Source of the DNA: an uncultured Bdellovibrionales bacterium
GTDB taxonomy: Bacteria > Bdellovibrionota_C > UBA2361 > CAKMMH01
Length of the DNA stretch: 64,000 bases
NCBI GenBank assembly: GCA_964534945.1
Contig: CAZHSB010000001.1
Span: 25,527 to 89,526, forward strand
Reading direction: 5' to 3'
This document shows, one piece after another, positions 4,353-50,875 of the stretch (position 1 is the stretch's first letter; every line of letters starts with the position of its first letter). The notes beneath the pieces were generated by a model. That model ran no database searches. It had not been told where the DNA came from and saw nothing but the letters and a program-made list of their open reading frames with translations. Made by a program: the position numbers and the translations under genes.

Positions 4353-5429
4353 TTAAATAAAAGACGCTTGACCATTATACTCTAAACCAAGATGATTATA
4401 TCCTTTTTCGGTAACCACTCTTCCACGCTTTGTCCTTGCTAAGAACCCCTCCTGCAACAGGTAAGGTTCATACACATCTTCTATAGTGTCTTTTTCTTCT
4501 CCAATAGCAGAAGAAATTGTATCAATACCGACAGGACCACCAGAAAATTTATCAATAATTGTCCTTAGAATTAATCTATCCATATCATCAAGTCCCAATG
4601 AATCAATTTGAAGAAAGTCGAGCGATTCTTTTGAGATCATTTTACCAATTGAATCACAATCCTTTGTCTGCGCATAATCTCTAACTCTTTTTAACAACTT
4701 ATTTGCGATTCTCGGAGTTCCACGAGAACGTTTGGCGATTTCTAGTGCCCCATCATCATCGATTTGAAGATTTAAAATCTTTGCTGATCTTAAAATTATT
4801 TTCTTTAATTCTTCAACCTCATAAAAATCAAGCCTTAAGACAAGCCCAAAACGATCTCGAAGCGGTGATGTTAAAAGCCCCGTCCTTGTTGTGGCACCAA
4901 TAAGAGTAAAAGGTTTTAAATCAATTTTTATTGATTTTGCGGCAGGACCATTTCCTATCATTATGTCTATTTCAAAATCTTCCATTGCAGGATATAAAAC
5001 TTCTTCTACGACTCTAGGCATTCTATGAATTTCATCTATAAACAAAATATCCCTAGGATTAAGTGTTGTTAAGATAGCCGCCAAATCTCCTGGCTTTTCT
5101 ATCACAGGACCAGAAGTTGCCTTAAAACCGACTCCAAGTTCTCCCGCTATTAATCTTGCCATTGAAGTTTTGCCAAGCCCAGGAGGTCCATGAAATAAAA
5201 TATGATCAAGAACATCTCCTCTTTTCAAAGTGGCACTGCAAGCAATTTTTACAGCCTCTTTAACCCTTTCCTGCCCTATATAATCCAAAAAAGCATTTGG
5301 CCTTAATGATTTTATTTCTATTCCATCTTGAGATTCAGAATCTTCATTTGCAAGAAGTGAAAGCCCTGTCCAGCATTGCATATCTTCATTATTTGGAACG
5401 ATTGTTTTTCTTGTATGATCTACGGGCAT
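4353..5429 (-). CDS. ruvB: Holliday junction branch migration helicase RuvB
   Basis: Walker [17 protein letters not shown]-terminal [13 protein letters not shown] motif and full-length RuvB-like architecture. The true start is possibly an internal Met (MQCWTG...). Confidence 0.9.
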
Positions 5430-5551
5430 TAAGAACTCTTTTTATTATTTTTATCGTGTTTCATTATAGTTAATCCAACGTAGATTGCAAAGAGGAAAAC
5501 TATCTAAAAAAAATAAAAAAAATAGACAAAATCCCTTTTGGCATTTATTTA

Positions 5552-6781
5552 TTATTTTCCAAAAATCTTTTTTGATTCTATTATTGCATCGACTAGCGCA
5601 TCGATATCTTCCTTATCACTATACACTCCAAAGCTAATTCGACATGTAGCATCTATATTTAATGAGTTTAAAAGTGGCATGGCACAATGGAAACCCGACC
5701 GAATCTGCACCCCAAAAGAATCTGCAATACTTGAAAAATCATGTGGATGAACGTTATCAATATTAAATGAAATAACTGATGATTTATTTTTCCCTGTACG
5801 TTCAGAGTAAATAGTTAATTCATCTAATTTATAAAGTTCTTCTATAGCATAAAGAAAAATACTCTTTTCATGCTCTTTAATTGATTCAAGACCTATTTTT
5901 TCAACAAAATCTATTGCCGTGCCTAACGCTATTGCCTCACCAATTGCAGGCGTTCCTGCCTCAAATTTGTGTGGAGCTTTTGCATACGTTGCATATTCTT
6001 TAGTAACAGTTTCTATCATTTCTCCGCCGCCTTGAAATGGTTGCATCTTTTCTAAAAGATGTTCTTTCCCATACAAAACGCCAATTCCCGTTGGGCCATA
6101 AATTTTATGTCCGCTAAAGCATAAAAAATCTGGATCTATTTTTTGTATATCAATTTTAAAATGCGAAACAAACTGAGCGGCATCAAGCAATGTTAATGCC
6201 CCACATTCTTTTGCAGTCTTTATAATTTCTTCTATAGGGAAAATCGTACCAAGTACATTTGACAGCATCGTCATCGCAACTAATTTAGGAGAATACTTTT
6301 TTATTTTTTTTAAATAATCATCTAAATCAAAATTATACTTATCATCTAAATTTACAAATATTAACTTTAAATTTTTTCTTTTGGCAAGCATTTGCCAAGG
6401 GATTAAATTGCTGTGGTGTTCTGCTATAGAAAGGAGTATTACATCTCCTTCTTGAAAATAATTTTCAAGAGCATAAGAAACTAAATTTATCGATTCTGTA
6501 GTTCCCCTAGTAAAAACAACTGAATTTTTAGTTTTAGCATTAATAAATTTCGAAACTTTTTCCCGTGAATCTTCGTAATATTTTGTAGCAATAGCACTCA
6601 AATCGTAAGCACCTCGTTGAATATTTGAATATTCTTTTGAATAAAAATCTAAAAGCCTTTTGATAACGCACGTTGGTTTTTGCGTACTTGCTGCAGAATC
6701 TAAAAAAGAAAGTCGTTTAGAAAAATTATCAAAAATTGGAAAATCTTTTCTTATCGCATTGCCTAACATTCTCATATTCAC
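5552..6781 (-). CDS. Cysteine desulfurase, class V aminotransferase (SufS/CsdA-like)
   Basis: 409 aa PLP-dependent enzyme with SufS-like N-terminus (FPIF...LDSAASTQKP), internal CFSGHKIYGPTGIG motif and C-terminal RSGFHCAMP motif. Confidence 0.8.
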   Translation of the reverse strand: MNMRMLGNAIRKDFPIFDNFSKRLSFLDSAASTQKPTCVIKRLLDFYSKEYSNIQRGAYDLSAIATKYYEDSREKVSKFINAKTKNSVVFTRGTTESINLVSYALENYFQEGDVILLSIAEHHSNLIPWQMLAKRKNLKLIFVNLDDKYNFDLDDYLKKIKKYSPKLVAMTMLSNVLGTIFPIEEIIKTAKECGALTLLDAAQFVSHFKIDIQKIDPDFLCFSGHKIYGPTGIGVLYGKEHLLEKMQPFQGGGEMIETVTKEYATYAKAPHKFEAGTPAIGEAIALGTAIDFVEKIGLESIKEHEKSIFLYAIEELYKLDELTIYSERTGKNKSSVISFNIDNVHPHDFSSIADSFGVQIRSGFHCAMPLLNSLNIDATCRISFGVYSDKEDIDALVDAIIESKKIFGK

Positions 6782-6872
6782 CTAAGTTAAATTATTAATC
6801 TATTGTCTTTAAATTTTTATTCTGTTAAAATTTTAACGTTTGTTTTAAAGGTTTATTTTATATTATATTTTC

Positions 6873-7808
6873 ATGAATTACTATAAAACTATAAATAATA
6901 GTTTGGTTGAAAAAAAAGGATATTTGTGCGCCATATTAGGGCTAGTTGTTATTTTCATATGTTGGATTTCCCTTGATTTGTCGTCTAATTATTACAAGAC
7001 ATCTATTAGTTTTGAGCTTTTAAAAGATGCATTAAATGAAAAACAACATGATAGAGCCACTGAGATAAGTGTTTCTCATTTAGATCCTAGTTTTAGCATA
7101 AAAATAATGAAAAGAATTTTTCCATCTTATTCAAATTTGCATTATTCCCTTCCAGCTACTTACCACTATAAAATATTTGGAATAGAAAGTCTTATTGATA
7201 AAAATGATTTAAACGGAGCAAAGGATAATTTAAAAATAGTAAAAAAAGCATTAAAAAGTTATGGATTTTTAGAAAACACTACCGTGCTAGGATCTCTTGA
7301 AACTATCGAAAAGCAAATAAAAACATTGCAATTAGAAAACAAAAATTTCTCTGAATATAAAACTTATTTAGAAGATTTAGAAGCAAAGAAAATACGAATA
7401 TTAAGACGTCATTCATTATTAGCAGATGAGTTTGGAATATTTTTATCATTAAGCCCAAATTATAAAAAAGGCACAGAGCTAAAAACATATTCAAAAGGTG
7501 TGCTTTATGGACTTCCTGTTTTGAAAGATTTACAAGATGACATTTCATCGCTTCCGATATTAAAAGAGGAGTTAGATAAGATTGGCGGAGAAGTTAATAT
7601 CGAAGCACAAAACGCTTATGAAGTTTTTGCAGGTCGTGTTTTATCAATACGAGAAGCAAGTAAAAAAATGAGAAAAAATTTTGATGAAGTAACTTCAAAT
7701 ATAAAACTTACAAAAAACGAAAAATCTGCCACAAAAAAATCAATTGAAGCTTTAAAAAAATCACTTAACACTAATATAGAGAAATTAATATTATCAATAA
7801 ATAGCTGA
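6873..7808 (+). CDS. Hypothetical membrane-anchored coiled-coil protein
   Basis: 311 aa with one N-terminal TM helix followed by a K/E-rich, predicted coiled-coil region. No recognisable family. Confidence 0.45.
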   Translation: MNYYKTINNSLVEKKGYLCAILGLVVIFICWISLDLSSNYYKTSISFELLKDALNEKQHDRATEISVSHLDPSFSIKIMKRIFPSYSNLHYSLPATYHYKIFGIESLIDKNDLNGAKDNLKIVKKALKSYGFLENTTVLGSLETIEKQIKTLQLENKNFSEYKTYLEDLEAKKIRILRRHSLLADEFGIFLSLSPNYKKGTELKTYSKGVLYGLPVLKDLQDDISSLPILKEELDKIGGEVNIEAQNAYEVFAGRVLSIREASKKMRKNFDEVTSNIKLTKNEKSATKKSIEALKKSLNTNIEKLILSINS

Positions 7809-41758: not shown

Positions 41759-42763
41759 ATGCAAGAAAACACAATCGAATTCCTATTTAAAAAATATAAT
41801 ATTGAACTTGAGCAAATATATGAAAATTTCAATTCAAGTTTTCATAAATCATCTTCTCTTTGTAATATTTCAAAATATCAAGTTTTCTCTGGAGGAAAAC
41901 GTATACGACCTTTAATTATTTTTGTTATAGCTAATCTTTTAAGGAACAACATTAATCAAAGTACTATAAATTTTGCAACTTGCGTAGAGCTATTACATAA
42001 TGCAACTTTAATACATGATGATGTAATTGATGATTCCGATTATAGACGCTCAAAAACAACCTTAAAAAAAGAATTTGGAATTTCAAAAGCTATTCTTTCT
42101 GGAGATTATCTTTTCGCATATGCATTCGACTATATTATTGAGCTTCCCAAGCCTCTTATTATCGAAACTCAAAAAACTGCATTGAAATTAATCGAAGGAG
42201 AATATGCAGAATTGGAAGTTAATCTAAAAAACTTATCTATCGATGACTCATTAAATATCATGCAACATAAAACTGCATCTCTTTTTTCTTTATCAACTTT
42301 CGGAAGCTATATTTTAAATCATGACAATATTAATAATGAAAATAATTTATTGGAAAATGATTTTAAAGAATTTGGGAAAAATATAGGAATGTGCTTCCAA
42401 ATTATGGATGATATCTTAGATATTTCCGTATCTAAAGAAATTTCTGGAAAACCTCAAGGAACAGATTTTATTGAAAAAAAACCATCAATAATCGTTACAT
42501 TATGGTTAAAAGAAAAAACAAGCTTATTTAACGATTTTATTAATGAAGATAAAAATATTTTTAACCTATTACCAGATATCCACAAAGAAGTTTTATCTTT
42601 AGGCATAATAAATAAAGCTTTGGTATATTTTGAAAAATATTATTCTTTATCAATTAAAAACTTAAATTCGTTAAAAATAAAATATCCCAATAATATCAAT
42701 CTGTTAGATTTGGAAAATTATTTAAAATATATCAAAGATAACGCCCTAAAAAATTTTTCGTAA
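41759..42763 (+). CDS. Polyprenyl diphosphate synthase (IspB/HepT-like trans-isoprenyl diphosphate synthase)
   Basis: First DDxxD-type motif (LIHDDVIDDSDYRR) and second (FQIMDDILD). Confidence 0.8.
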   Translation: MQENTIEFLFKKYNIELEQIYENFNSSFHKSSSLCNISKYQVFSGGKRIRPLIIFVIANLLRNNINQSTINFATCVELLHNATLIHDDVIDDSDYRRSKTTLKKEFGISKAILSGDYLFAYAFDYIIELPKPLIIETQKTALKLIEGEYAELEVNLKNLSIDDSLNIMQHKTASLFSLSTFGSYILNHDNINNENNLLENDFKEFGKNIGMCFQIMDDILDISVSKEISGKPQGTDFIEKKPSIIVTLWLKEKTSLFNDFINEDKNIFNLLPDIHKEVLSLGIINKALVYFEKYYSLSIKNLNSLKIKYPNNINLLDLENYLKYIKDNALKNFS

Positions 42764-43021
42764 AAAAACAAAAAAATATGCGACACTTTCTTTAATAATC
42801 CCCATAAGTGTTATTGTGAGCCAAGGCAATCCCTTCTTCACGGTTTTTCTTACTGATAATTTTCCATACATTAATTAAACGAAAACGCTTTTTTAAGTTA
42901 AAAAGATTTTTATTTTCTTGTTTTAATTTTTAAGAAGCATTTTTCTCGGTAAAAAGTTTTTCTTTAGGTTCTAAAAAAGTTTTATCAAAAAATTTTAACT
43001 TACTTTTTTAGGAGCTACACC

Positions 43022-43330
43022 ATGTCAAAATTATATCAACAAGATCCTGCTTACTTAACAGATAAAGGCTATGATCCAGTATGTGAACTTATGAGGGCAA
43101 TCATTCTTAGAGCAGTTGAAGACTACAATGCAGGTGGCGATTACAGAAAAGAAGCTGTAGATTATATGTTCGATAAGACTGGTGATAAGATTTTTTATGA
43201 AAACGAAGATGATCAATATATTTTTTCATTCTCATCAATATGCAAACATTTGGATTTAGATCCTGCAAAGACAAGATTTGCAATAATGAATGCTGATCAT
43301 AAAATTAGTACGAGACGTAGAACTATCTAA
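43022..43330 (+). CDS. Small hypothetical protein, paralog of 8317..8607 (unassigned family)
   Basis: AGGAG RBS. Shares L..A.L.RA..D...G.D..KEA and FSF..IC..LDLD....AI with the 8317 ORF. Confidence 0.55.
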   Translation: MSKLYQQDPAYLTDKGYDPVCELMRAIILRAVEDYNAGGDYRKEAVDYMFDKTGDKIFYENEDDQYIFSFSSICKHLDLDPAKTRFAIMNADHKISTRRRTI

Positions 43331-43364
43331 TTTTTGTTTTATCAGCAATAAATCATAAAATGGA

Positions 43365-43399
43365 CAGGGGGAGAATTGCATGGCTAAAAAATCCCCCTG
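43365..43399. terminator. 8-bp GC-rich stem hairpin (CAGGGGGA...TCCCCCTG) between convergent genes; putative bidirectional terminator
   Basis: Read directly from the sequence. Sits between the small ORF (+) and the cysA-like gene (-). Confidence 0.5.
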
Positions 43400-43472
43400 C
43401 TTGTTTTCTCCAAATTCTCATCAAAAATTTCAATCTAAAATTAAACAAAAGTAGGAAAAAATAAAAATTTTC

Positions 43473-45353
43473 TTAAATTGAAGGAACTATTAGGACACTG
43501 CTTGTGGTATGAGTTACAATCTCCTTTAGTAAATCAAAAACCTCCTTTTCATGTGAAAGAGGAACTCCAATAACTACTAAAGATATATCATCTTTGTTTA
43601 CTTTATTTAAAATTTCACTCATAAAATCTCCATTTTCAACACAAGAAATACAATTTAACTTATAAGATTCAAATAATAGTGAAGATTTCATAAGATAACG
43701 ATTCATTCGTTCTCTTTCTTCCTTTAATTTTGTATTTAATACATGAAAAAGTGTAACTTCGTTTCTTAAATGCCGTGCAATTCTTGCCCCAAATCTTATA
43801 ACTGTTTTCCCAGGCTCTCCTCCTGCCGTACAAATTAACATTTTATCTAACCTTAAGGTTCGAAAGTTAGAAATTAAAACAGGAACTCCTGCAGATACCA
43901 AAAGCTTTTTTGTTAAAAAACTTAATTTCGAAATTTCCTGTATATTATTATTTTGCGGAGCATCAACTAAAGAAACATCATAATACCCTTCCTGAACTTC
44001 TCTAACAAATTCTTTTATTAATTTTCCACTTCTTATTTTAGTATCAAAATGAAATAAATGACCTACACTTATCTTATCTTGTATCTTTTTTAAATTTTTT
44101 TGGACTTCCTCTAAAGCTTCTCCTCTCACACATGAATGAAATAAACTTAAAACTCCATGCGATGATAATGCAAGCTCTTTTCCTAAGGTCAATGCACCAT
44201 CTTGTTTTTCAAAATCATTCACTAGTGTAATAAATTTTAAAGCACTTGGTTCTAAAACATGATAAGAAGATAATGCTAAATATTGTTTTTTTCCAATCTC
44301 AACATCATTTTTAATATTCAATGAAATATCACTCGGTTCGCTACAAGCAACGTTGGCAAAACGTTGCCCATAAGAAAGTGCGGGCATTACAGGCCTTGTT
44401 CCCAAAAAAGTTTCAAGCTCAAAACAAAGCCTATTTATTGCACCTGAAAACCTAATTTCTTTTAATGTTCCCTCGCCTATCGGATAACAATCTTTAAATG
44501 GTACATCTTGATGCTTTACCATTTCTGGCCTAAACAAAAGCCTAACAGGTGCTCCCTCCTCATGCAAAGGTGCATCTTGTGGAAAAGGAAGTCTTTGTGT
44601 TCCAAGTCTTATTTCTCCACCTTCAGCCCTGCCAACAACTACATTTCCAGCTCCTAAAAATTTTGCAACAAATTCCTTTTTTGGTTTGTAATAAAGATTT
44701 TTGGGCGTTCCAACCTCTACTAAAATTCCTTTTTCCAAAACTCCTATTCTATCTCCAAGCTCAAAAGCTTCCTCTTGATCATGCGTAACTAAAATCGTAG
44801 TTACCTTTAATTCTCTTTGAATCTCTTTTAAAGAACATCTAAGCTGACTTCTTATCTCCGCATCAAGTGCCCCAAAGGGCTCATCTAATAACAACACTGC
44901 AGGCTCATATGCTAAAGCTCTTGCAAGTGCCACACGTTGTCTTTGCCCACCAGAGAGTTCATTTGGAAATCTCGTTCCAAGTCCACTAAGCCCTACAAGA
45001 TCAAGAAGCATTTGAGAACGACGATAACGTTCTTTCCTTTTTACTTTTCTAATTTTTAAGCCAAACTCTATATTGTCAACAACAGACATATTTCTAAAAA
45101 TCGCATAATTTTGAAATACAAATCCAGCATCCCTTTTCTGTGGAGAAAAATTAGTAACATCTTTACCATTTAAAAAGACCGCCCCCTCATCAGGATAAAG
45201 AAGCCCTGCGATAATTCTTAAAATTGTACTTTTTCCACTTCCACTACTTCCTAATAAGACAAAAAGTTCGCCATCATTAACAGTTAAATTAAGCTTATTT
45301 ACGACTAAATGCTCGTTAAACCCTTTTACTATATTTTCTAAAATTATTGCCAT
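43473..45353 (-). CDS. cysA: Sulfate/molybdate-type ABC transporter ATP-binding protein (CysA-like) fused to a TOBE-like domain and two C-terminal universal stress protein (UspA) domains
   Basis: Walker A GSSGSGKST, signature LSGGQRQR, Walker B LLLDEP. C-terminal 270 aa show two USP-like repeats (LICTAGGEPG...VTLFHV...ISLVVIGV...SVLIVP). Confidence 0.7.
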   Translation of the reverse strand: MAIILENIVKGFNEHLVVNKLNLTVNDGELFVLLGSSGSGKSTILRIIAGLLYPDEGAVFLNGKDVTNFSPQKRDAGFVFQNYAIFRNMSVVDNIEFGLKIRKVKRKERYRRSQMLLDLVGLSGLGTRFPNELSGGQRQRVALARALAYEPAVLLLDEPFGALDAEIRSQLRCSLKEIQRELKVTTILVTHDQEEAFELGDRIGVLEKGILVEVGTPKNLYYKPKKEFVAKFLGAGNVVVGRAEGGEIRLGTQRLPFPQDAPLHEEGAPVRLLFRPEMVKHQDVPFKDCYPIGEGTLKEIRFSGAINRLCFELETFLGTRPVMPALSYGQRFANVACSEPSDISLNIKNDVEIGKKQYLALSSYHVLEPSALKFITLVNDFEKQDGALTLGKELALSSHGVLSLFHSCVRGEALEEVQKNLKKIQDKISVGHLFHFDTKIRSGKLIKEFVREVQEGYYDVSLVDAPQNNNIQEISKLSFLTKKLLVSAGVPVLISNFRTLRLDKMLICTAGGEPGKTVIRFGARIARHLRNEVTLFHVLNTKLKEERERMNRYLMKSSLLFESYKLNCISCVENGDFMSEILNKVNKDDISLVVIGVPLSHEKEVFDLLKEIVTHTTSSVLIVPSI

Positions 45354-45386
45354 TTATTCCTCTTAATTTTATTTCTGCCATTTTAT

Positions 45387-46235
45387 TTAGGCTTTCTTAT
45401 ATTTCCATTCAATAATGCTTTTTAATATAAGTGTAAGGACAGCTAACAATGCTAAAAGTGACGATACAGCAAATGCCGCCGTAAAATTATATTCATTATA
45501 TAAAACCTCAACTTGTAACGGCATCGTATTAGTAACTCCCCTAATATGACCTGATACAACAGAAACAGCGCCGAATTCTCCCATAGCTCTTGCATTACAT
45601 AAAATAAGACCATACAAGAGTCCCCATTTCACATTAGGTAGCGTTATTGATATAAAAGTCCTAAGACCACTTGCTCCCATCGTAAGCGCCGCTTCTTCTT
45701 CATGGTACCCTTGTTCTTGCATAAGAGGTATAAGCTCCCTTGCTACATAAGGAAGCGTTACGAAAATTGTAGCAAGCAAAATTCCTGGAAAAGCAAAAAC
45801 TATTTTGATATCAAAATAATTAAGAATCGGCGCAAAAAACCCATGCGATCCATATAGCAAAATAAACATCATTCCTGCGATAACAGGAGAAACCGCCAGC
45901 GGTATTTCAATAAGCGTTAAAAGTACTTGTTTTCCAAAAAATCTAAATCTTGTAATAAGCCAAGAAGCAATAAGCCCAAAAATTAAATTAACAGGCACCG
46001 CGATTAAGGCTACAAACAACGTTAATTTTATCGAGGCTAGTGCATCAGGATCTTTTATAGATGCCATATAAGTATCAAATCCCTTTGCAAATGCCCCTGC
46101 AAAAACTGCAAAAAGAGGAATCACTAAAAACATAAAAAGAAATACTAATGCTATGGCAATTAGAAACCACCTGCCGATTCTTACCATAAATGGAATATTT
46201 TTTTCTTCTGTTACATTAAAAATATTTCTTACCAT
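45387..46235 (-). CDS. cysW: Sulfate ABC transporter permease CysW
   Basis: Six-TM ABC permease with an EAA-like loop, in a cysT-cysW-cysA arrangement. Confidence 0.8.
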   Translation of the reverse strand: MVRNIFNVTEEKNIPFMVRIGRWFLIAIALVFLFMFLVIPLFAVFAGAFAKGFDTYMASIKDPDALASIKLTLFVALIAVPVNLIFGLIASWLITRFRFFGKQVLLTLIEIPLAVSPVIAGMMFILLYGSHGFFAPILNYFDIKIVFAFPGILLATIFVTLPYVARELIPLMQEQGYHEEEAALTMGASGLRTFISITLPNVKWGLLYGLILCNARAMGEFGAVSVVSGHIRGVTNTMPLQVEVLYNEYNFTAAFAVSSLLALLAVLTLILKSIIEWKYKKA

Positions 46236-46242
46236 TCTTTAT

Positions 46243-47109
46243 TTATTTTCCATATCTCTTACTTGTAAAAAAACTTATAAAATTTACACTTAACATTAGG
46301 ACAAATGAAACACAAAGCATAACTATCGCATATGATGTCGCGCCAAGATAATCATATTGCTCTAATCTCGTCATAATCAAAAGTGGTACTATTTCCGTTT
46401 TCATCGGCATATTTCCAGATATAAAAACAACAGATCCATATTCTCCTAATGATCTTGCAAATGCTAAAGAAAAACCTGTAAAAATAGCAGGCCACAAATT
46501 CGGTAAAATTATTTTAAAAAAAATCACAAATCTACTTGCTCCCATACAAGCTGCCGCTTGCTCAAGTTCGGGTTCTAAATCTGCCAAAACTGGTTGGATA
46601 GTTCTAACAACAAAAGGTAAACTTATAAAAATAAGAGCAAAGATAACCCCAAGCTCTGTGAACGCAACTTTTATTCCTACCTTACCAAGCAACATTCCTA
46701 AATAACCACTGTACCAAGTCGCGCTATCTTTTACGACAGGAATCGCATATAAACTTGTTAGCATAATACCTGCAACCGCCGTCGGTAATGCAAAGGGAAG
46801 ATCTACAAGCGCGTCAATAAATTTTTTTCCAAAAAATTTATATCTTACCAACACCCAAGCAACTAAGAATCCAAAAAATGAATTCACAATCCCCGCGACA
46901 AGCGATGCGCCAAAACTTAATTTATAGGAAGCTATCGCACGCGGAGAAAGAATAATTTCCCAAAATTTTGAAAAAGTTAAATCAGATGCTTTTAAAATAA
47001 GCATAGAAAGCGGGAGCAAAACAAAAAAGCTAATATAAATTAGAGTAAACCCCATAGTAATTCCAAATCCAGGGAGCGTATTATGTTTTTTTATTTTCCT
47101 ACTTTGCAA
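46243..47109 (-). CDS. cysT: Sulfate ABC transporter permease CysT
   Basis: Six-TM ABC permease paralogous to the downstream permease; cys operon order. Confidence 0.8.
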   Translation of the reverse strand: MQSRKIKKHNTLPGFGITMGFTLIYISFFVLLPLSMLILKASDLTFSKFWEIILSPRAIASYKLSFGASLVAGIVNSFFGFLVAWVLVRYKFFGKKFIDALVDLPFALPTAVAGIMLTSLYAIPVVKDSATWYSGYLGMLLGKVGIKVAFTELGVIFALIFISLPFVVRTIQPVLADLEPELEQAAACMGASRFVIFFKIILPNLWPAIFTGFSLAFARSLGEYGSVVFISGNMPMKTEIVPLLIMTRLEQYDYLGATSYAIVMLCVSFVLMLSVNFISFFTSKRYGK

Positions 47110-47225
47110 AGAATATTTTCTCCTTAAAAATCCATTGAAAGAAAAACCCTTGATATTATAAAGTTATATAAAAAAATAACAACCAACGATAAAGAAATAT
47201 GAGTTTATTTTTTTTGAATCTTATA

Positions 47226-48188
47226 TTAGAAAAAACTAATAATATTATCTTCCGTGTCTATATTAGCCTTACCACCAATTGGAATTGTGAACAATGGATC
47301 TGTGTGACCAAAATCTAAATTATAGATAATCGGTATTGTTAAGTCTCTAAAAAGATCATCATAAATCAATGTTTCGGGATCATCTCTAGAAAATTTAGAA
47401 TCAGAGCTAAATCTTCCGATACAAATTCCTAACAATGTTTTTAAATCTATCACTTGCGATAAATGCGTAAAAAATCTATGAACCATCATAGTGTTAACAT
47501 CTTCGCATTCCTCTAAAAAAAGAATTTTATTAGATAAATCTGGAAAATATTTTGTCCCCGCAAGCACCATTAGTGTTTGTAAGTTAGAAGCAATGACATC
47601 TCCTGAAGCCTTTCCATGTTTATAAATCTTTCTTCCCTCATTTTTTTTCATAATACGATGATTAGAATCTTTTCTTAAGAAATAAAGATCATCTGCAAAA
47701 TACGGCGAGTCATCTATTTTGCAAGGCCTTTTATCAATAACTACATCATTAAAATATTTCAAACTATATTCAAATGGATCAGGCTTATCAAACGTAATTC
47801 CGCAAGGCCCCATAAAAGTTTTTATATTAGCAAATTTATGCACAGCCAAAAGTAATGCTGACGTATCTGAATATCCAATAATCGGTTTTGGATATTTTCT
47901 AAACATTTCATAATCTAGATAAGGAAGTATTTGATTTGTATTCGCCCCTCCCCAATATGACATCAAAATATCGATTGAAGGATCTTCCAACATTTTATAA
48001 ATAGCATTTACCCTCTCATCAATACTACCCGCCACATGCCCAAAAATTTTTGTAACTTGCGGATGTTCATAAATCTCAAAGCCATTCTTTTTTAGATATG
48101 AATATCTACATTTTTCGTCTCCCTGAACTGGAAGTGACGTTGAAAAAATCCCTATTTTTACTTTTTTTGCATCACTTTTTCTGCTCAT
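47226..48188 (-). CDS. ldcA: LD-carboxypeptidase (peptidase S66, LdcA-like)
   Basis: GYSDTSAL nucleophile motif and a downstream FGH His. S66-like full length. Confidence 0.7.
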   Translation of the reverse strand: MSRKSDAKKVKIGIFSTSLPVQGDEKCRYSYLKKNGFEIYEHPQVTKIFGHVAGSIDERVNAIYKMLEDPSIDILMSYWGGANTNQILPYLDYEMFRKYPKPIIGYSDTSALLLAVHKFANIKTFMGPCGITFDKPDPFEYSLKYFNDVVIDKRPCKIDDSPYFADDLYFLRKDSNHRIMKKNEGRKIYKHGKASGDVIASNLQTLMVLAGTKYFPDLSNKILFLEECEDVNTMMVHRFFTHLSQVIDLKTLLGICIGRFSSDSKFSRDDPETLIYDDLFRDLTIPIIYNLDFGHTDPLFTIPIGGKANIDTEDNIISFF

Positions 48189-48193
48189 GAGCT

Positions 48194-49201
48194 CTATTCA
48201 TAAAATTTATCGAATATTGCGCCCTCGTCAAAATGTTTTTCTTGCGCTTTTTGCCAACCGCCGAACATTTCGTCATCAATTGTTAATAAATTCAATTTTG
48301 GAAAACGAGAATTATATTTTTTCTGCATTGACTCCATGCGTGGTCGATAATACCACTTACCAGCTAAATCTTGTCCTGTTTCGCTATATAAAAATTTTAA
48401 ATAACTTTCTGCTATTTTCCTTGTTCCATGCTTTTCAACATTTTTATCAACTAATGAAACTGTTGGCTCTGCCAAGATACTAATTGATGGCGTAACAACC
48501 TCAAACTCTCCTTTGCCTAATTCTTTCATTGCCAAAAATGCTTCATTTTCCCAAGTAACAAGAACGTCTCCGATTCCTCTTTGAACAAAAGTAATCGTTG
48601 ATCCCCTTGCACCTGTATCTAATACAGGAACATTTTTAAAAAGCTTTTTTACAAACTCTTTTGCCTTTTCCTCTGAATTATTATTATGTTTCATTGCATA
48701 TCCCCAAGCCGCCAAATAATTCCATCTAGCGCCACCTGACGTTTTTGGATTTGGAGTTATAACTTGAATACCATCTTTTACAAGGCTATCCCAATCAGTT
48801 ATCTTTTTAGGATTTCCTTTTCTAACTAAGAAAACAATCGTTGATGTATAAGGAGCACTATTTTGTGGAAGCCTCGTCTGCCAATCTAATGGCATAAGCT
48901 GTGCCCTTTTTGCAATCTCATCAATATCAAGCGCTAATGCCAATGTTACTACATCAGCTTCTAATCCATCGATAACCGCCCTTGCCTGTTTTCCAGACCC
49001 CGCATGAGATTGTCTAACTTGGATAGTCTCTTTATTTTCTTTTTCATAAAATTTAACAAATTCCTTATTAAATTCTTGATAAAATTCTCGCGTTGGATCG
49101 TAAGAAACATTTAAAATAATATTTTCCTTTGCGCTTACAAAAGAAGAATAAAGTAAAATAACACTTCCTAAAAAAACTAATTTTAAATTCAAGACTTTCA
49201 T
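48194..49201 (-). CDS. sbp: Sulfate/thiosulfate ABC transporter substrate-binding protein
   Basis: Signal peptide followed by an Sbp/CysP-like periplasmic binding protein. Upstream of the cys permeases. Confidence 0.8.
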
Positions 49202-49249
49202 TTTTCCTCTTAAAAAATAATTTTTATAATTATGTAAAGAATACTGGAC

Positions 49250-49858
49250 CTACTTGTTCTCTTTACATTTTACGATGATTTTATCATCTACTAAATTCAT
49301 ACTATCAACCTTTTCAAAATATTTTTTAGTATTATCTTGCAACGTTATTTTCTGCCAATCTTTTAAAAAAGGTATCTGTTTCGAATTAAAATCAATAATA
49401 TTTGTCTTTAACTCAATTTCATTTGGGAATTTAGAATCAAAACGAGTTTCAAAATTTAATATCCCATTTAAAAATTTACCTTGAAAAATCTTTGTATTTA
49501 ATAAATTAATTAATGGTATTGAAAAAGATACATCAATTTTGGAATCTTTTATATTTCCATAAATCCATTTTGTAAGCACAATTTTGTCATCAATATCTTT
49601 TATAAATAGATTTATCTCTTCTCCCTTAATGACATATTCGCCATCACAAATCCCCGATTTTAAATTATTTAAAAATATGTCAAAAGAACGTCTTTTTTTA
49701 AGAAACTCATCTTCTGGGATACTAATACTTTGGACCTCCACAGGAGAATTTGATGCAAGGCTAATGACATAATTTGTAAATTTCTTATAAGAATAATATG
49801 AAGCTCCTGCAAAAATTAAAAATACGATACAAAGTATAATTAAGATTTTTTTCCCCAT
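49250..49858 (-). CDS. Hypothetical membrane-anchored protein
   Basis: 202 aa, N-terminal TM helix, no recognisable family. Confidence 0.4.
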   Translation of the reverse strand: MGKKILIILCIVFLIFAGASYYSYKKFTNYVISLASNSPVEVQSISIPEDEFLKKRRSFDIFLNNLKSGICDGEYVIKGEEINLFIKDIDDKIVLTKWIYGNIKDSKIDVSFSIPLINLLNTKIFQGKFLNGILNFETRFDSKFPNEIELKTNIIDFNSKQIPFLKDWQKITLQDNTKKYFEKVDSMNLVDDKIIVKCKENK

Positions 49859-50875
49859 TTAATTTTTCTCCATTAAAATATTTTCTAAAAAACTATCCTT
49901 ACCAATAACGTCCATTCTGATTTTAGCAAAGTAACACTGTTTTTGCCATACATCATCTAGCTTGACAAAATCTTTTTCTGTACAAACAACGCTACAATTA
50001 TTTTCATGTGCATACTTAAAGATTTTTTTTAAATCTTTTTCTGATATCACTTTATGATCTAAAAATTTATATGTCTTTAAAATTTTTAGTCCTTTATTTT
50101 CTAATGTATTAAGAAAACTTTGCGGCTTTGATATGGCGCAAAATGCCACGATTTCTTTTTCAATATCTATGACTTTATACTCATAATCTACTATTTCTAC
50201 TTTATTTACGAACCCCTCATATAAAGGTATGTTTTTAGGCAAAACTTTCTTTAAAATATTTATTTCCTCTCTTTTTTGAGAATATACACCTCTATAATTT
50301 AGTACTATAATATCAGTTCTTTTTAATACGTCTTTAACGCTTTCTCTTAAAAAACCTCTTGGAATCAATCTATTTGATAAAATATCTTCAACTGATTTTT
50401 TTGTACTAACATCTATTGATAAAATATCTATATCCCGCGCCACACATCTATGTTGCATTGCATCATCTAGTAAAATAATGTCTGCTTTATCCTTTAACGC
50501 CTTTATTCCCAATGTTCTTTTAGGAGATATAACAACAGGGCATTTCACATTTTTATAAATCATATATGGCTCATCACCTATCAGATCAGATGAATCTTTA
50601 TCTTCAATAAGATGAAAACCTTTTTTTATTTTTGATTTATATCCTCTTGTTACAACCGCTACTTTCTTATTTTTCTTTTTTAGCTCCTCCAATAAAAAAA
50701 TGACAAGTGGTGTTTTTCCACTTCCGCCAAGAGAAACATTTCCAACACTAATTATCTTTTTATCTAAAAACTTTTTTGTTTTTAAAATTGAACTATCATA
50801 AAGCCTATTTCTAATATGTGTAATTAGGAAATAAATAAATTCAATTGGTAATAATAAAATTTTTAAATATTTCAT
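49859..50875 (-). CDS. lpxK: Tetraacyldisaccharide 4'-kinase
   Basis: P-loop VGNVSLGGSGKTP and LpxK-like length. Confidence 0.85.
   Translation of the reverse strand: MKYLKILLLPIEFIYFLITHIRNRLYDSSILKTKKFLDKKIISVGNVSLGGSGKTPLVIFLLEELKKKNKKVAVVTRGYKSKIKKGFHLIEDKDSSDLIGDEPYMIYKNVKCPVVISPKRTLGIKALKDKADIILLDDAMQHRCVARDIDILSIDVSTKKSVEDILSNRLIPRGFLRESVKDVLKRTDIIVLNYRGVYSQKREEINILKKVLPKNIPLYEGFVNKVEIVDYEYKVIDIEKEIVAFCAISKPQSFLNTLENKGLKILKTYKFLDHKVISEKDLKKIFKYAHENNCSVVCTEKDFVKLDDVWQKQCYFAKIRMDVIGKDSFLENILMEKN

Follow-up and report, generated by a model that had tools for sequence, protein, structure and literature searches.

The window analyzed here, a stretch of 64,000 nucleotides from an uncultured Bdellovibrionales bacterium (GCA_964534945.1, contig CAZHSB010000001.1), contains a sulfate transporter cluster in which the gene of the ATP-binding cassette (ABC) ATPase continues, in the same reading frame, into two universal stress protein (USP) domains. 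This minus-strand gene, named here cysA-USP2, is a genuine, evolutionarily conserved gene fusion, and its C-terminal tail has a tandem-USP fold. This arrangement is most reasonably read as giving the USP module a regulatory role in sulfate import. By analogy with other regulated transporters, the tail may act as a cis regulatory clamp on the importer ATPase, with a ligand or partner at a loop of the second USP domain tuning uptake, a reading to which we assign a rough probability of 60%. The gene and its parts are listed below (aa, amino acids).

43473..45353, minus strand: cysA-USP2 fusion gene, 626 aa plus stop codon, a continuous open reading frame (ORF) encoding the sole ABC ATPase of the cluster
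44646..45353, minus strand: ABC nucleotide-binding domain (NBD), aa 1-236, based on Pfam ABC_tran and PDB 1z47
44247..44645, minus strand: all-beta C-terminal regulatory domain, TOBE/Mop-like, aa 237-369
43854..44246, minus strand: USP domain 1, aa 370-500, degenerate and without ATP motif, based on model topology, profile matches and hhalign
43476..43853, minus strand: USP domain 2, aa 501-626, based on a sub-threshold Pfam Usp match, profile matches and the model
43800..43838, minus strand: family signature loop of USP domain 2, aa 506-518, LICTAGGEPGKTV, between strand b1 and helix a1

Conservation of the fusion across genomes

One genome per GTDB species (185,579 in total) was scanned for the signature L[IVF]CTA[GA]GEP, resulting in 130 stretches, of which 114 were confirmed, and in 80 kept loci (L007-L086, within a set of 86 related loci in all). 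The NBD and the USP module were encoded in one ORF in 72 of these 80 loci; six loci were cut by a contig end, and two (L048 and L053) corresponded to stand-alone tandem USPs. With an exhaustive hidden Markov model profile search, 1778 cluster representatives were retrieved at E ≤ 1e-3, of which 68 reached E ≤ 1e-30, and approximately 30 of the best 150 were 617-643 aa long, with the module at about aa 320-630. The nearest relative of the window gene (L007) was found in an uncultured Bdellovibrionales metagenome-assembled genome (MAG), with identities of 70% for the module, 90% for the NBD and 95% for a CysW fragment, which makes a low-GC member of the Bdellovibrionota the very likely source of the window. 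Since the fusion occurs in one ORF in 72 independent genome loci, it is not a sequencing artifact, and the comparison with related genomes bears out the sequence-only reading, made before this analysis, in which the gene had been taken as a real fusion.

An artifactual origin, in which cysA and a distinct tandem-USP gene downstream of it were merged by an error of sequencing or assembly, could draw on two related assemblies with frame slips inside the gene (between NBD and regulatory domain in L004, and at the edge of the contig in L001), as well as on the few stand-alone tandem USPs that share the domain-2 signature (L048, L053 and the protein P0009). Against it, the junction [YF]H[VI]L.PS.LK was in frame and kept in the 72 independent loci and in the ~30 metagenomic cluster representatives, the window ORF has neither a stop codon nor an intergenic spacer between the two parts, and in the AlphaFold2 model the last strand of the regulatory domain leads straight into USP strand b1. 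An artifactual fusion is effectively excluded.

The fusion is rare yet recurrent: it occurs in eight or more lineages, which together comprise about a hundred carrier species of uncultured bacteria. The carriers belonged to Bdellovibrionota, Chloroflexota (mostly Anaerolineae), Acidobacteriota (mostly Blastocatellia), Armatimonadota, Fraserbacteria, Neomarinimicrobiota, Bipolaricaulota/Acetothermia and Ignavibacteria, in addition to one Clostridia MAG. Between phyla the NBDs were 66-69% identical, a hint that the fusion arose once and then spread by horizontal transfer. The architecture had previously been called unusual, which stands with regard to its rarity (114 confirmed stretches in 185,579 genomes), although it recurs across these lineages and fusions of a secondary transporter with two USP domains are known. 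All of the 80 kept loci came from MAGs, no cultured isolate with the fusion being seen among them, and this may explain why it is unstudied.

Some apparent exceptions were also evaluated. P0005, P0004 and P0001, considered as free tandem USPs, were rejected when tblastn showed the NBD in another frame (L004) or truncation at a contig edge (L001, L002 and L005). P0005 is the fusion split by an assembly frameshift. In L004 (125-2126, GCA_012974945.1) the NBD, with 66% identity, lies upstream in another frame (266-910, frame 2), and the remainder (981-2114, frame 3) had been called as a 365-aa 'USP' protein; a minus-strand gene call of 237 aa over the NBD region gave no Pfam match and is probably spurious. 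The gene is also split by a frame slip at the contig edge in L001 (1-180). The idea of an orphan module was discarded as well: with the C-terminal 301 aa alone as query, only two short metagenomic homologues had been returned among 5.8 billion proteins, but that index was insensitive and the profile search overturned the result. Stand-alone tandem USPs with the domain-2 CTAGGEP signature were located at 1204-2124 in L048, 1819-2658 in L053 and 685-1605 in L006 (P0009), the latter with a canonical ATP motif in domain 1. The fused module may have been derived from free-living proteins such as these three.

Domain architecture and evolution of the USP tail

The NBD belongs to the ABC_tran family (PF00005; 116.9 bits, cut-off 25, E 1e-33), and all five of its catalytic motifs were present (Walker A GSSGSGKST, the Q-loop in FVFQNYA, LSGGQRQR, LLLDEP and THDQ) and conserved across 99 relatives. 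The best solved relative was PDB 1z47 (E 7e-73), the Alicyclobacillus CysA, and the alignment reached into the regulatory domain. Scores for the CysA family models were under the cut-offs (305.1 bits vs. 342.75 for TIGR00968 and 286.3 vs. 502 for PRK10851), placing the protein outside curated CysA; relatives in L008, L010, L015 and L044 did not reach any ATPase family cut-off either. The assignment to CysA is supported by context, the protein being the only ATPase encoded with cysT, cysW and sbp, and by 1z47 as its closest solved relative.

The sequence-only reading had described a 626-aa gene at 43473-45353, and an uninterrupted minus-strand ORF was found at exactly those positions. It had also assigned the first ~340 aa to an NBD plus a TOBE-like domain and the final ~270 aa to two USP repeats; the domains themselves were recovered, but the beta regulatory domain reaches about aa 369 and the USP part measures ~255 aa. 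Its two proposed repeats (LICTAGGEPG...VTLFHV and ISLVVIGV...SVLIVP) both fell within USP domain 2, where they correspond to strands b1-b2 and b4-b5, the true first repeat being located at aa 372-497 (LKFITLVN...VLSLFHS...YYDVSLVD...VPVLIS) and the second at aa 503-626. Finally, it had predicted that the C-terminus would score as USP, and this was not the case for the window protein alone, which remained below the Pfam Usp cut-off (PF00582, 24 bits) with 17.3 bits at full length and 21.2 bits for the isolated C-terminal module. The match was limited to domain 2 (aa 503-597), aa 340-500 being without any match.

The USP identity was supported instead by the relatives, the family profile, hhalign and the fold. 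Among 21 diverse relatives of the module, 20 exceeded the Pfam Usp cut-off (best E 1.8e-33), and USP structures were matched by both halves when the family profile was compared with PDB sequences, the best of them being TTHA0350 (E 3e-13). Profile positions 16-140, corresponding to domain 1, matched the USP structures 3loq, 3mt0 and 7mq5, while domain 2 matched MJ0577, TeaD and TTHA0350. The two halves are homologous repeats, as indicated by an hhalign probability of 99.7% (E 5e-27, 120 columns) between domain 1 and domain 2. In the AlphaFold2 model, built from 25 sequences, the tail formed two consecutive b-a-b-a-b-a-b-a-b units, that is, the USP fold present twice, with predicted local distance difference test (pLDDT) values of 77-90 for domain 1 and 75-93 for domain 2. 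Tandem USPs ranked first in fold searches with Foldseek, with a template modelling (TM) score of 0.80 to 3ab7.

The tail is under purifying selection, yet it evolves faster than the motor, as expected of a regulatory appendage. In the comparison with L007, identity and the ratio of nonsynonymous to synonymous substitution rates (dN/dS) were 90% and 0.05 for the NBD, 69% and 0.19 for the regulatory domain, 68% and 0.36 for USP domain 1, and 71% and 0.18 for USP domain 2, the ratios being rough values given that dS was about 0.7-1.1. USP domain 1 was the fastest-evolving part, with only 33-43% identity to L008 and L009.

The signature loop of domain 2 stood out from this background, with the consensus C-T-A-[AG]-G-E-P-G-K-x-D. 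Among 99 sequences, the consensus residue was found in 97 at C508, 92 at T509, 91 at A510, 97 at G512, 96 each at E513, P514 and G515, and 95 at K516. The loop is followed by G.R[IL]AR on helix a1, with R523 and R526 conserved. In the model it lies between strand 504-508 and helix 516-529, connecting strand b1 with the start of helix a1, and its aligned counterpart in TTHA0350 is the D-x-S-E loop. In USPs, contacts with the nucleotide ribose are made by the b1/a1 region (PMC3673472). Such conservation points to a putative binding or contact site.

Proposed regulatory role and alternative explanations

In type I ABC importers, the NBD dimer has its C-terminal regulatory domains paired beneath it, and in ModC and MetN a ligand on these domains keeps the NBDs apart, an effect known as trans-inhibition. 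According to the mechanism proposed here, two CysA-USP2 copies would sit beneath CysT/CysW, an arrangement common to all type I ABC importers. Each tail would fold as an intramolecular USP pseudo-dimer, and the two tails would pair into a four-domain assembly beneath the regulatory domains. Such an assembly is proposed because the regulatory domains of NBD dimers pair and because tandem USPs, which are intramolecular pseudo-dimers, pair into four-domain dimers of tandems (PMC3673472). A ligand or partner at the C-T-A-[AG]-G-E-P-G-K-x-D loop would then favor or hinder NBD closure, tuning ATP hydrolysis and sulfate uptake. The clamp would most likely work as a brake, by analogy with TeaD/TeaABC, Rv2623/Rv1747 and the trans-inhibition of ModC and MetN. 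Deletion of TeaD potentiates TeaABC (PMC8280820, citing Schweikhard 2010), and Rv2623 is a negative regulator of the ABC transporter Rv1747 (PMC5549992).

Several points weigh against the clamp. The structure models represent the monomer only, with low confidence in the NBD part; the inhibitory direction, drawn by analogy, is inferred, as are the gating mechanism and the ligand. Position 518 of the loop (nt 43800-43802), which is D in 86 of 99 sequences, is V in the window protein and in L007. Moreover, the ATP-binding class of USPs (UspFG / MJ0577 type) is defined by the motif G-2X-G-9X-G(S/T) before the last strand (PMC3673472), and G-x2-G-x9-G-[ST] was absent from both USP domains of the window protein and present in domain 1 of only 8, and in domain 2 of only one, of the 99 full-length family members. 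Since the motif is missing, the ligand, if any exists, would not be read by it, and the rationale first offered for the fusion, namely that USP domains bind nucleotides, carries little weight for this protein.

A minority of the family differs in this respect: G-x2-G-x8-10-G-[ST] was kept in domain 1 of P0066, P0071, P0087, P0015, P0036, P0088, L010 and L021, the first three also having the canonical VDGS motif in strand b1. The canonical domain 1 looks like an ancestral ATP-binding state that was lost in the window lineage, and the few members that keep it (VDGS, G.RG....GST) point to an ancestor similar to an ordinary tandem USP. A Walker A identity for domain 2 was also considered and rejected, as [AG]x4GK[ST] fitted only 46 of 99 sequences and its [ST] position was variable.

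The alternatives to the clamp differ mainly in what the tail would bind. Gating by adenine nucleotides, with one or both USP domains binding ATP, ADP or AMP and coupling sulfate import to the energy or stress state of the cell, is doubtful, even though the top structural neighbors bind such nucleotides (TTHA0350 with ATP in 3ab8, MJ0577, TeaD, and both 3tnj and 2gm3 with AMP). In TTHA0350, complete degeneration of the motif does not prevent the C-terminal domain from binding ATP (PMC3673472), in KCC1 the tail binds ATP/ADP in its USP-like lobe (PMC8280820), and the canonical domain-1 motif is retained in the 8 of 99 members mentioned above, such as P0066, P0071 and P0087. Domain 2 additionally offers a Gly-rich loop with K516, followed by R523 and R526, and the P-loop pattern [AG]x4GK[ST] in 46 of 99 sequences, the window protein included. 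Opposed to this are the loss of the ATP motif from both window domains and from more than 90% of the family, the variability of position 517 in the P-loop-like pattern (S, T, N, A, R and others), and the fact that USP domains also take non-adenine ligands: the USP domain of KdpD holds c-di-AMP (7ji4) and UspE holds UDP-3-O-acyl-GlcNAc (4wy2), so the fold does not dictate ATP.

A ligand-free role, in which the tail would be a dimerization or stabilization scaffold for the CysA dimer, or a platform for protein docking, seems unlikely. It would agree with the degeneration of the ATP motif in both domains and with the rapid evolution of domain 1, both described above. However, conservation across phyla reaches 95-97% in the 10-residue loop that occupies the canonical ligand site of domain 2, far above the rest of the module, which is hard to explain by a scaffold alone, and the CysA dimers of Escherichia coli and Alicyclobacillus work without any USP-type tail. 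Its remaining support comes from known systems, as tandem USPs are obligate dimer-of-tandem assemblies (PMC3673472) and Rv2623 works by protein-protein contact with a forkhead-associated (FHA) domain (PMC5549992).

A bolder version of the clamp, quite unlikely in our view, is that the domain-2 loop defines a new ligand-binding subclass of USPs that would sense a metabolite of the sulfur pathway and shut the sulfate importer directly. It was conceived because the loop combines a Gly-rich anion-binding turn at the N-terminus of a helix, an invariant Cys, and Lys/Arg residues on helix a1. Such a sensor might bind adenosine 5'-phosphosulfate (APS), 3'-phosphoadenosine 5'-phosphosulfate (PAPS) or some other anionic nucleotide, or it might respond to a thiol/redox signal through C508. 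If this were the case, feedback by a USP-derived sensor would be stacked on a TOBE-type oxyanion sensor, a layer of control not described for any ABC transporter.

Transporter cluster and comparison with known systems

The fusion gene is the last of a cluster whose genes are all on the same strand and separated by short intergenic gaps; the gene order sbp-ldcA-cysT-cysW-cysA proposed from the sequence was confirmed. The remaining genes are the following:

48194..49201, minus strand: sbp, periplasmic sulfate-binding protein gene, 335-aa ORF, first of the cluster
47226..48188, minus strand: S66 LD-carboxypeptidase gene, Pfam Peptidase_S66 and Peptidase_S66C, E about 1e-25
46243..47109, minus strand: cysT, sulfate permease, NCBIfam TIGR02139 CysT, 371 bits against a cut-off of 246
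45387..46235, minus strand: cysW, sulfate permease, NCBIfam TIGR02140 CysW, 390 bits against a cut-off of 329

Both CysT and CysW passed the NCBIfam equivalog cut-offs, and the sbp product shared 51-71% identity with the Sbp-like genes that precede the fusion gene in L008, L014, L018, L020 and L023, all of them Bdellovibrionota loci, L014 being from the complete MAG CP129486.1. The S66 LD-carboxypeptidase (LdcA-like) gene sits between sbp and cysT, 5 bp past the end of sbp and with a 116-bp gap to cysT. None of the 86 related loci showed a homologue of this peptidase, the gene being specific to the window; in L008 and L009, sbp is followed by cysT with no S66 gene in between. Downstream, a 102-aa ORF (43022-43330, plus strand), convergent with the fusion gene, had no Pfam match. 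Promoter-like sites were no more abundant than expected by chance. Terminator-like sites numbered 9 vs. 3.2 in shuffled sequences, none of them between the stop codon of the fusion gene and the downstream ORF, and an Rfam scan of 42000-50500 gave no match.

In related genomes, sbp, cysT and cysW adjoined the fusion gene, directly upstream of it, in Bdellovibrionota, Neomarinimicrobiota and many Acidobacteriota. A second type of operon had a single permease and a binding protein, whose best scores were for sulfate families (238 bits vs. 240 for TIGR00969 and 149 vs. 155.5 for TIGR00971). This arrangement was observed in L010, L015, L019, L026, L027, L060 and others, at about 5000-6930, from Chloroflexota, Fraserbacteria, Armatimonadota and Bipolaricaulota. 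As permease and binding protein scored just under the sulfate cut-offs, the substrate of these systems may be sulfate or a related oxyanion; an identity as ModABC (molybdate) was rejected, NCBIfam scoring the sulfate families ahead of ModB. No second ATPase gene was found in the related operons. A canonical cysA had been suspected in the gaps of 1.6-3.5 kb of some Acidobacteriota operons, but these gaps hold a Porin_O_P gene instead. This gene, of the phosphate-selective porin O/P family, was located between cysW and the fusion gene in several Acidobacteriota/Blastocatellia (for example at 3486-4985 in L063 and 5158-6675 in L082), and its position suggests that it may encode an outer-membrane anion channel dedicated to the sulfate-type system. 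L063 has a further USP-containing protein in the operon, encoded by a 623-aa ORF (5001-6872) that immediately precedes the fusion gene and matched both Usp (34.9 bits) and Glycos_transf_2.

Literature searches for a USP fused to an ABC ATPase or to CysA found no paper describing one. None of the ten cluster representatives that were looked up had a name of its own, and a few relatives carried automatic JGI names ('ABC-type ... ATPase subunit / nucleotide-binding universal stress UspA family protein' or 'sulfate transport system ATP-binding protein'). The architecture is present in public metagenome data, unnamed or auto-named, and consists of familiar parts in a new combination. Its practical impact is modest, given that transporter-USP fusions are known and current understanding is not overturned. 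USP biology, in which biochemical function is still largely unknown, would gain a rare case of an unambiguous regulated target, since the module is fused to that target, and the invariant loop and clean domain boundaries make the question directly testable with recombinant protein.

Compared with the ATPases of type I importers (CysA 1z47, GlcV 1oxs, ModC 3d31, MalK and MetN), the fusion protein shares the catalytic NBD and the sbp/cysT/cysW operon, and regulation through a C-terminal domain is well established for ModC and MetN, but it adds a tail of ~255 aa with two USP domains and scores under the NCBIfam sulfate ATPase cut-offs. The tail resembles tandem USPs (TTHA0350, Rv2623, UspE, AF 3loq and PA1789) in having two homologous USP domains per chain, and one or both ATP motifs are degenerate in TTHA0350 and PA1789 as well (PMC3673472). 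Those proteins are free-standing, whereas the module of the fusion is covalently attached to an ABC ATPase, and in its domain 2 the usual V-x-V-D-x-S motif is replaced by the family-specific C-T-A-[AG]-G-E-P-G-K-x-D loop.

Known USP fusions involve a second USP domain, kinases, amino-acid permeases (including an archaeal permease with two USP domains) and Na+/H+ exchangers (PMC3673472, PMC12159084). In cation-chloride cotransporters (3g40, KCC and NKCC) and USP-fused carriers, a cytoplasmic tandem USP-like tail dimerizes and regulates transport (PMC3673472, PMC12159084, PMC8280820). These are membrane-embedded secondary transporters, while the tail described here follows a TOBE-like domain on the soluble ATPase of a primary, binding-protein-dependent importer. 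In TeaD/TeaABC, a tripartite ATP-independent periplasmic (TRAP) transporter, and in Rv2623/Rv1747, an ABC exporter, a USP (tandem in Rv2623) acts as a negative regulator in trans (PMC8280820, PMC5549992). TeaD and Rv2623 are separate polypeptides that bind ATP through the canonical motif, which the fusion protein does not have, and the phospho-threonine/FHA contact of Rv2623 has no counterpart in it. The known built-in regulation of ABC importers resides in TOBE-like, MalK-type and MetN-type C-terminal domains, to which a tandem-USP tail would add a second layer of control.

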